A DNA stretch of 64,000 nucleotides from positions 1-64,000 of the forward strand of contig JAUFOQ010000003.1 in NCBI GenBank assembly GCA_040285855.1, written 5' to 3'. The notes under the pieces were generated by a model, which worked only from the letters and a program-made list of their open reading frames with translations, was not told the origin of the DNA and did no database searches. The first letter of the stretch is position 1, and each line of letters starts with the position of its first letter. This DNA comes from Eukaryota sp. GEM-RC1. Lineage: Eukaryota. Shown piece after piece: positions 57,008-62,715 of the stretch. The position numbers were made by a program, and so were the translations under genes.

Positions 57008-57082
57008 ACCAAATGTTGTCATTACAAATGTTGTATCACCAAATGTTGTCATTACAAATGTTGTATCACCAAATGTTGTCAT
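57008..57082 (+). repeat. 30-bp tandem repeat x2.5 (five CAAATGTTGT cores) upstream of a TATA box
   Basis: accaaatgttgtcattacaaatgttgtatc repeated exactly. Confidence 0.9.
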
Positions 57083-57131
57083 AAAAATCATGATGATGTC
57101 ATAATGTCAAGTTGTCACTGTAGACAACATC

Positions 57132-57139
57132 TATAAATA
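57132..57139 (+). promoter_or_regulatory. Candidate TATA box of the Fanzor polyprotein locus
   Basis: TATAAATA 30 nt upstream of the ORF start. Confidence 0.45.
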
Positions 57140-57168
57140 GTTGAAATCCTTTTGAACTGTATCTTTTC

Positions 57169-59110
57169 ATGTTCCTTTGCTCTCAAACACCACAAGGTGT
57201 TTTGGTAGATAATAAGAGGATTAAGTTACTCGAGGCATCACCTGGTCTTTCCTTTCTGTTTTGTTTTTGTTTTCAACACCACAAGGTGTTTTGGATGATA
57301 CTGAGAGTATTTAGTTACTCGAGGCATCATTCTTCTTGTTTGTTCCCTTTGTTGTCACCTTCCAAACACCACAAGGTGTTTTGGATGATAATAGGAGAGA
57401 GATCCCTTTATGTGACAATAAATCAACAGTCATCACAGTTTGCTCATGATTTAACCACGGAAGGAGACATAGAGTCAAACCCTGGTCCTTTTGTTACTGA
57501 GGAAGGAATCACCACATTGAAGCCCTCCGTATGGCTCGATGATTCTGTTGTTGACTTTTATGGTGAGTACATCACCGAGAGTAGCGAGTTATGCCAGTTT
57601 TTCCGTATCGGGAATCTTCATGCTGCAGTGAGTTATGGCGATTTTGACACATTAGCTCTTGAATTTCTAAATGTTCAAAATTCAATGCGAGAGACTGGAA
57701 AAAGGTTTTTATTTATTCCAATAAACGATGGTGTCTTTCGCGGTACAGCAACTCATTGGACTCTACTTGTTTGTGACATTGATAGTACATCATTTTTTTC
57801 ACTTGATCCAATGTACACTGACAGTTCAACTCAACTTTCATTTGACGTTTTAACTCAAAATGATCAAGTTTTAAGTACATTACAGGAATATTTGCGTCAT
57901 TTTGGTAATTTTTCAAATTTAGGAAAGCTCCCAGTTATTAAACAGCAAACTCCCAACGACTGTGGACCATTTATCTTAATGTATATGCAAAGATTTGTTC
58001 ATTTGGCATCAACATCAGACAATTTCCAGGAAATTATGTTTCAAGTCCAAGGTTATGTCGATTATGATGCTTCTGAAATGAGAAAACAAGTTCTTAATCT
58101 AATAGCATCCACGCATCCTATTCCTTTTGCTATACTTGCTGTAAGTATTGTACATGAGTACTTTTCAAACAACATTCAAGCACATGTTCAAGAACACAGT
58201 ACTATAGTTCATTCAACCCCTTCCCATCAACAAATGAATAGATCTGCTGGTACTTCTGAAATAGCCGAACATCCAACAGTAGTTTCATCTCCTGATGAAA
58301 CTCGACAAGTGCCATTGACTATACCCAATCAACTTATAGACTCAAATCGTACAAGAAAAACTCGTCAATCTAGAAAATATCCTCCAAAAAAGAAGAAATT
58401 TTCTCAAAAATATCAAATTTTAAAACATCAACATCGTGGAATTCTAACACAATCTCGTCCTAGACCAATTTTACTAAGATCTAATCAAATTGATACTCTG
58501 AAACCCAATGTGCTGCTTCATGATTCTGTCATTGACTTTGTTGGTCAGTACATTGCTGAAAAGAGTAATCTATGCGAGTTCTTTGAAGTAGCCAACATTC
58601 AAGATGCTATTAATCTTTCACAATATAACATAATGTTTGCACAATTTAGAGAAGTTCAATTATCAATGGAAAAGTCCAGTAAAAGACACACTCAAAAGTG
58701 TAAGAAACGTTTCTTGTTTATTCCAATACATGACGGTCTCTTTGATACAACAGCCACTTACTGGTCACTGTTAATCTGTGATATTCAAAATAAACAATAC
58801 TTCTCTATTGACTCAATGTGTACAGAAGATCAACATTCTCAGATTTCTAACACTTTTATCACGTATTGACAATGTCATTTCACAATTACAGCAATTCCTG
58901 TTTGATATGGCAAATTTCAGCTACATAGCTAGAGTACCAGTTCAACAAGTCCAAACTCTCAATGCCTGTGGTCTATATATTCTAATGTATATGAATAAAA
59001 TTGTCGAGAGTGAATCAACATCAACAAATCTTTTGAAATTCTGTCTAAAGTCTCTAACTGTGTTGTTTATAATGCATTAGAAATGAGAAAACAAATACTG
59101 TCTCAAATCG
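57169..59110 (+). CDS. 2A StopGo peptide followed by two Ulp1/C48-family cysteine protease domains (second is frameshifted, His to Tyr)
   Basis: HDLTTEGDIESNPGP; LKPSVWLDDSVVDFY...FIPIN...HWTLL...LD...QQTPNDCGPF; the repeat has YWSLL...NACGLY. Confidence 0.85.
57184..57390 (+). repeat. About 89-bp tandem repeat with hairpin AACACC-acaa-GGTGTT, three hairpins
   Basis: aacaccacaaggtgttttgg at about 57186, 57275 and 57365; agttactcgaggcatca twice. Confidence 0.9.
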
Positions 59111-59734: not shown

Positions 59735-60450
59735 AATATTGTTTTTGATATTGAAACTAGAGAAATTGATCAAATCCCTGCAGAGACAGTTACACAGGAG
59801 TTGGACGATCAAAGAAAGAACGAGAATGAATCTCTCAAAATGAAAAGTGATGCAGAAAAAGAAGTGTGGATTCAAAACCAACAAGTTTTTATGATTTCTG
59901 GGGTGTTTGGTCATTTTATAAAAGATCAATTTTACCTTCAAGACAATTTTGTTGCAACTTTAGAGTTGACTCAAGAATCTGATGTTGAACTGCCACCTGA
60001 TTGTAGAAACCTTCGATTTTTTGAAAACGAAAAACAGTTACTAGAGTTTTTGTCAACTATTTGAATGATAAAAATCCCTCAGTTTTAACTGGATTTAACA
60101 TAACTGACTTCGATAATGTTGTTTTAGGCAACAGGATTGTTACACTTGGAGTCGACTTTCCAGAACCAATGCTAGATGAAACAACTAAATCTCATTTATC
60201 ATCTCTATGGCAAAATGTTTGTTCTGAATGGGCTGGTAGAATTGCCTGTGATTCATACGTTTATGCTAAGCAATTTATTGTTTCAAAATGTTCAAAGTCT
60301 TTAAGATCATTAAGTTGGTTTTTATTAAACGAATCTAAAGGACGTCTTCATGACGAATTTCACCACTTATTGCCTATTGATTGTGTTGATGAAAGACCTC
60401 AAGAAGTTGTAAACTATTGCTTCAAAGATAGTGTAATAGCATTGAAGTTG
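59735..60450 (+). CDS. DnaQ/PolB-type 3'-5' exonuclease domain (frameshift near 60060)
   Basis: ExoI VFDIET, FENEKQLL, ExoII GFNITDFD, ExoIII YCFKD. Confidence 0.8.
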
Positions 60451-60489
60451 TTTTTATTGTTTCAATCAAATAAAATCGTTCGCCCAACT

Positions 60490-62551
60490 TTTGTAACACA
60501 TAAAACTACACTAAAGTCTATTGTCAAACATTTTGGATTAACGCTATTACTCGATTATTATGCTCAGTTGGTTCACAAACTTAGAATGCACACTTCCTAT
60601 TGCTTGAAGCTGTTTTTATTACACATGGATAAGAATGGTGAAAAATTACCTTTAATTACAAGGAAAGAAGTAGAACATATTCAAACTCTGTTAAGATACA
60701 TCTCTGCTGAACATCATGAGATTGAATTATGTAATCAAGGACGACCTCCCACATATAATGATCACTTAAAAAACTTTGTTTTAGAAGAATACAAACAAGT
60801 AATGCTCAACAATGGAGGAATTCCACTCTTTCCAGCTGCTCATTCCTCACGGCTTATGGCAATGGTTGGTGAAACTATTAAATCGAATTTGGACACAAAC
60901 ATTAAAATGCGATATGCTCAATACATTGACAAATTTATTAATGTTTATTTTCAAAAGACTGATCAAGAAGAAACAATGTCAAAAAAAGAACAGTCTGTTT
61001 TTCGTTGGAGACTAAGACAAGTTAAAAATGTCTTTCTTGAAGGTAACAGAAATGACATTCCAAAAACCCCTGCAGAAATAAAACAATTTATTCAAAGATG
61101 TAATACAGAAATTCTTCAAGGCGACAGTAATAGAAGTTTGAACATTGCAGGTAAAATTAAACTTCTATGGGCAACAAACGACTATGTTGAAGGATTGTTT
61201 AGAGATAAATATTTTATTGATGTTCTCTTCCCACCATCAATTGATGTTCAAAATGCTAATGGTGTTTATAAAAAGAAAGTCGTTAAATCTCTACTAAAAT
61301 CAGTTCGTGAACATCCCCAGTCCTTTATTAAATCTGCGATTCAAATAAATAACTATCTTGAAAGTAAAGGAGCAAGTGCTTACAATGTAATTCCTATTAT
61401 TCGTCACGTCACACCAGGTTTCTTTGTCAAAACAAGTGAATGTCAAGAAGAAAATGTCTGATTGGAATACACAAACTGAAATTCAAAAATGTCTCCTGCT
61501 GAACAAAATCAATTCTGGTCTTACTTTTTCAACTTTAATCGTCCATTTATAAAGAAAGGCTATAAGTTTAACAATACCATTAAAACTGATGGTTTCTCTG
61601 CTTGTGTTGAACTTACCAAAGAGGACTGTGTGGGAATGTCCTTTAAACCAGACAGTGCAAAGTTCTCCAGTAAAGAAGAATATGTTCAAGACTATGATGT
61701 TGAAGAGTTTTCATTGAAAACAAAAGTTTTTATTGATCCTGGAAAAACAGATTTACTCTATTTTTGTTCAGAGAAAGTAAATAGGCCATTTCCTGAACAA
61801 AAAGCCCGTGAAATGAGAAACAAAGAATACGAGTGGCTAAGATTGACAGAGACAGAATGGTCCAGATGGTCAAGGGTCCATCAAAAGTTTAGAAGGGGAA
61901 AGAAAAAAGAATTCATTCTCCGAGATGGAAAGACAGTTGAAGAAGAAGAGTCAACATTGTCCATAGAAAATTCGAAATCGACTCTTTATGAAACCTTCTA
62001 TGACTATGTGGGTTCCAAACTAACAGTTATTGAATCAACATTTGATTACTACTGTTTGATGATATGGCGCATTCAAAAATGCAAAGATACGTCCATATTC
62101 AAAAAACAGAAAGTAAGTTGTTGAAAAATATGACTGCAAAAGGATGGAATAAAAATGACTGTGTATTGATGTTTGGTGACAATGGTAATAAGAGGCAGAA
62201 TCTAAAACACCTCCGATCAAGTAGAGGTGTGATGTGGAGAAACTTCTTTAAGAGAAATCGTTACAACCTTGTTCTCGTAGATGAGAGTTACACATCTTCA
62301 AAGTGTCCTACTTGTTGGGGGCCAGTCAAAGTGTTCAAAGAAATCAGTAATCCAAAACCATGGAAAGAGAGAAGAAACCTCTGGTAAAGTGTCACGCTTT
62401 GTTGAGATGTAAGTCCCAAGAATGTAGAGAAGAATGTCATGGTAGCGCCAAGGTTTGGAATCGTAACAAGTTGGCATGTATCAACATCAAAACCATTGTG
62501 GAGCATCATTTGGAGCGGGGTCTAGGAGTTAGACCCAGTTATTTGTCATAG
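60490..62551 (+). CDS. Fanzor (eukaryotic TnpB-like RNA-guided nuclease), disrupted
   Basis: KTTLKSI...LKLFLL N-terminus, IKTDGFSAC, RuvC-I IDPG, FGD, RuvC-II VDESYTSSKCPTC, LLRCKSQEC, RuvC-III WNRN..ACINI, terminal RPSYL. In frame with the exonuclease C-terminal half. Confidence 0.88.
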
Positions 62552-62715
62552 TCATAGTCATAGCGTTTTTACTACAGTGAATCTGTAGCATTATTGAATC
62601 TTAGAATTTGTCAGACATCTTCTCAGATTCATGGAAGTAGAGAAAATGGAAAAGTATAGCTGAGGATTTCCCAATGGAAACCCCTACCTATCTCAACTGT
62701 TGCTAATTTAGTCAT
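62530..62715 (+). ncRNA. Candidate Fanzor omegaRNA scaffold
   Basis: Three stem-loops directly after the stop: ctacag/ctgtag, tgaatct/agattca, tagctgag/ctcaactg with inner tttcc/ggaaa. Confidence 0.5.

Follow-up and report, generated by a model that had tools for sequence, protein, structure and literature searches.

A linkerless exonuclease-Fanzor1 fusion in a multi-copy, likely mobile element of skoliomonads

INTRODUCTION

Why should an RNA-guided nuclease and an exonuclease share one polypeptide chain? The question is raised by a locus in the first 64,000 nucleotides of contig JAUFOQ010000003.1 of Eukaryota sp. GEM-RC1 (GenBank assembly GCA_040285855.1, forward strand); this whole stretch is termed the window. 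A stop-free path on its plus strand, from 57145 to 62551, encodes in order a 2A core, two C48 proteases, a basic linker, a DEDDy 3′–5′ exonuclease of the family B DNA polymerase (PolB) type and a full-length Fanzor1. An original prediction, made from the sequence alone, had taken the locus for a self-processing polyprotein of an undescribed mobile element, and the colinear order and common strand are as it claimed. To our knowledge, every characterised Fanzor is a stand-alone nuclease.

Judged by sequence comparison, the fixed core of the element, and its defining novelty, is a linkerless fusion of the exonuclease to Fanzor1. The element is apparently an undescribed Fanzor1-element variant, so far only in records of skoliomonads, which are free-living anaerobic protists. 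We propose, as a plausible reading that we stop short of calling probable, that this is a multi-copy, likely mobile element of skoliomonad type in which the fusion serves as a cut-and-trim homing enzyme.

THE EXONUCLEASE-FANZOR1 CORE

By Pfam, two Peptidase_C48 stretches (E 4e-13) come first, then DNA_pol_B_exo1 (E 2.9e-6), then a weakly matched TNB zinc finger. The last match (Cas12f1-like_TNB, E 0.0013) is under its cut-off, and Pfam alone is weak for Fanzor. The relative P0001, onto which the window maps, matches SpuFz1 by sequence at E 5e-24. Its AlphaFold2 model was made from a 122-row alignment (predicted local distance difference test, pLDDT, 85.6; predicted template modelling score, pTM, 0.81). 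Residues 248–940 of the model match SpuFz1 (Z 27.3; root mean square deviation, rmsd, 4.3 over 568 aligned residues), PpFz1 (Z 26.5) and GtFz1 (Z 21.9), from the start of those chains, and Foldseek gives E values of 7e-26 to 8e-16 against the three. The modelled WED-REC-RuvC-TNB fold runs over about 600 aa; this whole fold and a relocated RuvC-II Glu are shared with SpuFz1 (8GKH, 9CEU-Z), PpFz1 (9CF0-3) and GtFz1 (9CER). Any doubt that the C-terminus resembles TnpB/Fanzor is answered by these matches of P0001 in sequence and fold, and the domain calls of the original prediction all hold, with Pfam, profile and fold matches for C48, exonuclease and Fanzor.

Unlike the solved Fanzor1 proteins, the skoliomonad protein has an N-terminal exonuclease of ∼245 aa, itself preceded by 200–900 aa of linker, proteases and 2A. 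The exonuclease has the three DEDDy motifs (ExoI DxE, ExoII NxxxFD, ExoIII YxxxD). Its sequence profile finds Pol delta first (E 1e-12), then Escherichia coli Pol II (3e-7). Residues 1–245 of the P0001 model have the PolB exonuclease fold (Z 14–15, including Z 14.9 at rmsd 2.6 over 170 aligned residues), and in the ESM Atlas residues 1–420 lead at 0.81 to PolB exonuclease clusters; there P0177 gave no usable match. ExoI–III motifs and fold are those of the family B proofreading domain (Pol delta, 3IAY/6S1M; Pol alpha and archaeal PolB by fold). Unlike in family B polymerases, there is no polymerase domain, and the last helix of the exonuclease runs into the Fanzor WED strand.

How widespread is the fusion? 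An exonuclease profile built from 21 skoliomonad records was compared with 216 proteins. Among these are 77 named skoliomonad records and 127 other Fanzor-like proteins, the latter from the best 150 of 1103 matches in a search of 1.84 billion proteins, excluding the look-alikes P0018, P0034, P0045, P0141 and P0154; all counts for these others are among the matches listed. The profile matches 31 of the 216, all within the 77 skoliomonad records, and none of the 127 others. Of the 31, 26 have ExoI, 28 ExoII and 27 ExoIII; motifs are missing mostly where records stop short, and P0011 has E>K. The window and nine relatives, from families 25–53% identical, have the same distance between ExoIII and the first Fanzor strand. 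A homologue search with the exonuclease region gave only four named skoliomonad records among 1084 candidates.

Intact catalytic motifs and a fixed junction would also suit an exonuclease that does not act in homing, trimming instead the omega RNA precursor at its 3′ end or degrading the cut target (rival elements, viruses). Fanzor guides do have a defined 3′ extension of 14–15 nt (PMC10432273), and exonuclease fusion raises mutagenic editing by Cas12f (PMC12337685). We consider this unlikely, however, as the nearest relatives of the exonuclease are DNA proofreading domains and other Fanzor1 proteins mature their RNA with no exonuclease attached.

The RuvC site has its first Asp (IDPGK, 61732) and the relocated Glu (VDESYTSSKCPTC, 62277) just ahead of a C4 zinc finger (CKSQEC, 62408), as expected of Fanzor1, while the third catalytic residue, Asp in the RD motif of Bao & Jurka and Asn in GtFz1, is present in the Asn form only (WNRNK, 62456). 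This Asn recurs in 39 of the 40 named records showing the motif (37 more do not reach it) and in one of 102 other proteins, 25 others being without a match. A dead RuvC (RD to RN) was considered and ruled out by the activity of GtFz1, which has the same D-E-N triad, here clade-wide in skoliomonad records; moreover, D606N raises SpuFz1 activity (PMC11423790). A FastTree was built from 71 C-terminal regions without the window, 11 of them from skoliomonad records and the other 60 selected for length and motif. The skoliomonad rows form one clade with support 1.0, on a long branch of what is a quick tree. P0048, an unrelated stand-alone Fanzor1 outside that clade, also has the RuvC-III Asn, and the D-E-N triad therefore arose more than once. 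The Fanzor-frame stop codon is overlapped by (GTCATA) x3 at 62545–62563.

READING FRAME AND ARCHITECTURE

Is the architecture one gene or several? In the list of open reading frames (ORFs) the path consists of nine overlapping plus-strand frames with nine frame changes, and the relatives are predicted proteins, so an artefact, nested fragments or separate genes stitched together by gene models, has to be weighed. It is largely refuted, and we think it highly improbable: ExoII, ExoIII and the N-terminal half of Fanzor share one 478-aa open frame in the raw DNA of the window, and several families far apart keep the same order. The 1905-aa protein P0014 is colinear with 57421–62545, with 46–53% identity across 60049–62545. 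Single-chain records with 2A, exonuclease and RuvC-III are P0002, P0007, P0014 and P0177; the single ORF that the original prediction expected of related copies is found in these four. The architecture is real.

Seven of the nine frame changes are one base short. An identical-base run of four or five lies at the switch in six of the seven and a run of three in the other, against a background of 10% of bases in runs of at least four; the switch zones were picked by the analyst from homologue alignments. The change at 58855 goes the opposite way. In a comparison of two ribosomal DNA (rDNA) copies in the window, 5 of 11 indels fall in runs of at least four, versus a background of 8.5%. Because homopolymer runs mark the switches, as they do these rDNA indels and the breaks of a nearby gypsy element at A runs, most breaks look like sequencing errors. 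The loss of ∼13 codons near 61425, which removes a nearly invariant IDT motif, may be real. The frameshifts noted in the original prediction are thus there, while its stop-containing gap near 61460 is this codon loss plus a frameshift: no nonsense codon lies on the path, two TGA codons near 61460 are off-frame, and a stop-free frame-2 stretch (61427–61489) resembles the relatives. TGA recoding or an intron at 61460 is unneeded, since a stop-free frame exists.

Table 1. Features of the element in the window
Feature	Position	Strand	Remarks
Three 30-bp tandem repeats	56999–57088	+	Upstream of ORF; possible subterminal/promoter repeats; core unique within window
TATAAATA, TATA-like word	57132–57139	+	From sequence; putative function
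Leader region, 2.4 copies of 89-bp unit	57163–57397	+	Small hairpin in each
2A/StopGo-like peptide	57430–57489	+	Core GDIESNPGP 57463–57489; predicted skip before last Pro (57487)
C48 protease 1, SENP8-like	57490–58125	+	His 57754; Asp in SLDP; Gln/Cys in QQTPNDCG 57943–57966
Basic stretch PPKKKKF	58381–58401	+	From sequence; presumably like a nuclear localisation signal
C48 protease 2	58465–59125	+	Two frame changes; Tyr for catalytic His at 58759
Low-complexity basic linker	59126–59743	+	∼59320–59510 resembles linkers of P0004, P0014, P0043 (by eye)
PolB-type DEDDy 3′–5′ exonuclease	59744–60465	+	One frame change near 60050
Exonuclease motifs	ExoI DIET 59747–59758; ExoII GFNITDFD 60091–60114; ExoIII YCFKD 60415–60429	+	
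Full-length Fanzor1	60466–62551	+	Joined without linker; stop 62549–62551
Fanzor1 sites	RuvC-I Asp 61735; RuvC-II Glu 62283; RuvC-III Asn 62465; C4 zinc finger 62304–62425		
Fanzor1 frame changes	Near 61487, 62077, 62364	+	From homologue alignment
Expected omega RNA and right end	62552–62750	+	Local hairpins only; placed by analogy with SpuFz1

THE 2A PEPTIDE AND ITS LEADER

The peptide has in frame the (G/H)D(V/I)ExNPGP core that marks 2A/StopGo sequences and is the sole strict 2A match in the six frames of the window (∼2e-6 expected by composition). Of the 77 named skoliomonad records, 16 carry a 2A-like motif (12 with the strict core, four with a variant), as against none of the 127 others. 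The motif lies upstream of all domains in the window, P0002, P0014, P0007 and P0192; only in P0180 is the end of a C48 domain found upstream of it, and P0177 starts just before it. Since the 2A precedes every domain, no protease would be parted from the nuclease by a skip in the window copy. A skip here would only shed a short leader, leaving one protease-exonuclease-Fanzor chain of ∼1690 aa, and the self-processing polyprotein of the original prediction is unsupported as stated. In one screen 7.4% of retroelement 2A peptides were highly active (bioRxiv 10.64898/2026.09.24.754024). Variants with His for Glu (DVHKNPGP, DIHPNAGP) occur in P0082, P0186, P0185 and P0007; kept in several records, they are candidate non-canonical skip peptides.

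The tandem repeats, called at 57008–57082 and 57184–57397, and a TATA-like word, both predicted upstream, are present (Table 1). In-frame ATG codons at 57169, 57295 and 57385 lie within the leader, 34–106 codons upstream of the 2A. The 89-bp leader units fold with z of −0.65, −2.06 and −1.44 relative to shuffles, and no Rfam family matched the leader.

The core is the same as in 2A peptides of RNA viruses and of retrotransposons that lack long terminal repeats (LTRs), and several relatives have a W..DL/NL..GDVE form like chimeric A/B peptides (bioRxiv 10.64898/2026.09.24.754024). That source lists 2A peptides from RNA viruses and reverse-transcribing elements, and its main text is without the words ‘transposon’ and ‘Fanzor’. 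In the literature searched we found no DNA-transposon paper for 2A peptides. Unlike the viral and non-LTR carriers, the skoliomonad element has no reverse transcriptase or RNA-dependent RNA polymerase.

Might the 2A then be inherited from a retrotransposon? The element would in that case move via RNA, with a non-LTR retrotransposon copying it in trans and its Fanzor otherwise employed. Cellular 2A peptides are reported from reverse-transcribing, mostly non-LTR, elements (bioRxiv 10.64898/2026.09.24.754024), P0016 and P0003 look 5′-truncated, non-LTR elements are abundant in the window and no terminal inverted repeats were found. Yet no poly(A) tail lies 3′ of the stop of the window copy, the main text of a 2026 review (PMC13565253) knows of no Fanzor-encoding retrotransposon, and the truncated records may be gene-model breaks. 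We regard the RNA route as improbable.

C48 PROTEASES AS VARIABLE CARGO

Aligned to SENP8 (1XT9), C48 copy 1 has the His-Asp-Cys triad and the oxyanion Gln. Copy 2 is predicted to be inactive because Tyr replaces the catalytic His. The two are 46% alike to each other at the amino acid level and 14–21% to other C48 domains, and therefore point to a local tandem duplication. Two C48 domains are present, as in the original prediction, which had called them Ulp1 proteases; among solved structures SENP8, a NEDD8 protease, ranks ahead (E 3e-6) of Ulp1 (E 1e-4), although one comparison favouring SENP8 was biased by SENP8-like rows and the margin does not fix the protease substrate.

Tandem proteases are not a defining feature of the element. 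With the 2A, two C48 domains occur in the window, P0002 and P0014; one in P0007 and, as a different C48 on a near-identical core, in P0192, P0211 and P0216; and none in P0082 and P0186, which have the variant core DVHKNPGP. Copies thus number 0–2, differ in sequence and stand on either side of the 2A. The C48 protease S273R of African swine fever virus cuts at Gly-Gly. Self-cutting by C48 at a Gly-Gly ahead of the exonuclease was rejected for the element, as this site exists in the P0014 family only and not in the window, P0004, P0043 or P0177.

A C48 domain in a repeated element is also known from the Kaonashi ULP-like cargo of Mutator-like elements (MULEs; PMC6117577). Unlike that cargo, or SENP8, the domain is here in frame with Fanzor and variable in number and position. 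The exonuclease could likewise be a passenger, picked up a single time by a carrier of Helitron or MULE type, of use by itself to the element or its host and uncoupled from the Fanzor cut: MULEs carry C48 cargo (PMC6117577), and C48 cassettes have been swapped between P0007 and P0192 on near-identical exonuclease-Fanzor parts. Proteases come and go, however, whereas the exonuclease is kept linkerless in families only 25–53% alike, and the pTM of the two-domain P0001 model suggests a fixed pose. Capture as a passenger seems to us rather unlikely.

RELATIVES AND MOBILITY

All close protein relatives come from records under the names Eukaryota sp. TZLM3-RCL, TZLM1-RC and GEM-RC1, the closest being 72–91% identical to pieces of the window. 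These organisms are skoliomonads, free-living metamonads with Nanopore and Illumina assemblies and AUGUSTUS gene models (PMC11316075), and the host of the window is therefore probably a protist of skoliomonad type. Clusters at 90% identity hold 10, 3, 4, 7, 11, 5, 4, 4 and 6 records, on several contigs; since some records of a cluster are pieces of one locus, these sizes are not copy counts. Neither viral contigs nor two metagenome scans that used single proteins as queries gave a confirmed related locus, a search that reaches close relatives only. The gene model of P0016 joins a DEAH helicase to a 5′-shortened exonuclease-Fanzor, either a host-gene insertion or a model artefact.

The related records form a dispersed multi-copy family, and because of this copy number the element is likely mobile, as the original prediction had it. 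A domesticated host defence family, combining an RNA-guided cut with degradation of foreign DNA and expanded by duplication, would explain the deep conservation in three named genomes. The many near-identical and partial copies, the changing cargo and the surrounding transposons and rDNA make this still less probable than an RNA route.

GENOMIC SETTING

The setting of the element in the window is eukaryotic, with rDNA units and non-LTR and Ty3/gypsy elements. 5S rRNA genes lie on the minus strand within the rDNA repeat spacer (2329, 18217, 30254). The 18S copies at 13211–14994 and 25281–27063 differ by 88 mismatches (94.8% identical), and the rDNA units are 98.5% alike overall. A non-LTR retrotransposon (8734–11813, plus strand) with reverse transcriptase and restriction-like endonuclease interrupts a 28S rRNA gene in antisense orientation, close to position 665 of the model, as a site-specific rDNA element; further pieces are at 40581–43325 (minus strand) and 6075–6354. 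Broken non-LTR reverse transcriptase pieces (54906–55578, plus strand) lie to the left of the Fanzor element. The 100-bp LTRs of the Ty3/gypsy element (45201–52003, plus strand) are identical, and its frame is broken at A runs. A 108-bp piece like a solo LTR (56353–56460) has TGTTGCCA at its inverted ends and is flanked on either side by TGAG. A dispersed repeat of 330 bp, oppositely oriented at 52430–52753 and 63143–63471 and 80% alike, bounds the right end of the Fanzor element from outside.

DISCUSSION

What, then, might the fused exonuclease do? One ORF encodes 2A, 0–2 C48 proteases, linker, exonuclease and Fanzor1. In the cut-and-trim homing that we propose, a 2A skip would shed the short leader (in the P0180 type, a protease) and give a defined N-terminus. 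An omega RNA derived from the right end and the adjoining flank would guide the nuclease to the empty allele, where the D-E-N RuvC would cut. SpuFz1 cuts the non-target strand after base 16–17 and GtFz1 after 14–17 (PMC10432273). At the cut empty site, the 3′ end on the side of the target-adjacent motif (TAM) would carry 14–17 nt of right flank, while the occupied template has the element after the TAM. This 3′ tail would be unmatched to the template and therefore have to go before the end could prime copying of the element. The fused exonuclease would remove it, the target also being destroyed against re-ligation, and host repair would then fill the trimmed break with a copy of the element. 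The SENP8-like proteases would be optional cargo stripping NEDD8, SUMO or ubiquitin marks, and spread to new loci would probably use a transposase in trans.

In yeast, part of the removal of short non-homologous 3′ tails falls to Pol delta proofreading, and T4 intron homing likewise depends on 3′–5′ exonucleases to clear such tails. By this analogy, an exonuclease of Pol delta type joined to the WED domain would suit tail trimming. Restorative homing has been shown for TnpB and proposed for Fanzor (PMC13565253).

Several points weigh against the proposal. The relatives are ab initio gene models that may bridge breaks with introns, P0002 is without short stretches present in P0014, and the window copy, having lost the IDT motif, may be dead. 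SpuFz1 RNA directly follows the stop codon (PMC10432273), and yet four folds of the corresponding region here (z −0.72, −0.46, +1.07, +0.12) are no better than shuffles and no Rfam family matched it, so that the structured RNA predicted downstream is at shuffle level. Between the end regions of the element there are only chance-level 10-mers; a 10-bp inverted match of 57121 with 62718–62727 was rejected as ends, two direct 10-mers turning up in the same scan. As the original prediction had said, no transposase is seen among the ORFs of 55000–64000 (ORF list, Pfam), leaving no mover; the known carriers of Fanzor1, with superfamily transposases, termini and target duplications, are Mariner, MuDR, Sola, IS4-like, hAT, Helitron and Crypton. 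For the predicted mobile element, then, the multi-copy family was found and ends, target duplication and mover were not. Spu-1 is like it in having no transposase inside, according to the main text of PMC10432273; 30-nt inverted repeats like those of Spu-1 were not found in the skoliomonad element. Homing by Fanzor itself is a proposal, a 3′–5′ exonuclease could also destroy the 3′ end needed for recombination, and MmeFz2 editing fell with each of the engineered fusions, to TREX1, TREX2 and T5 (PMC12923547).

Those fusions and exoCasMINI (PMC12337685) likewise join an RNA-guided RuvC nuclease and an exonuclease in one chain. They are man-made, from T5 or TREX with flexible links, and hurt Fanzor2, whereas the skoliomonad fusion is natural and co-evolved. 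The combination that the original prediction thought undescribed is not described in the literature searched: no natural Fanzor-exonuclease fusion was found there, such elements possibly being contained in supplements, Repbase or subscription papers, and ‘exonuclease’ is absent from the main texts of PMC3627910, PMC10711439, PMC10530073, PMC10432273 and PMC13565253.

The skoliomonad family matters in several ways. It has a 2A motif in an element without reverse transcriptase, a D-E-N triad fixed across a whole clade and a natural counterpart to engineered exonuclease fusions, which failed on Fanzor2. A bolder reading, which we put forward as doubtful, is a transposase-free ‘cut, trim and copy’ selfish element, which would also be the first among DNA elements in which a 2A skip of viral type serves exchangeable deNEDDylase-like counter-silencing modules. 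If true, exonuclease-Fanzor and host recombination would spread it to empty alleles, and guides from new flanks would open new loci. A natural, lineage-wide fusion points to an open step in homing by OMEGA systems, the removal of the 14–17 nt between junction and cut, and makes this tail-removal step testable by one point mutation.

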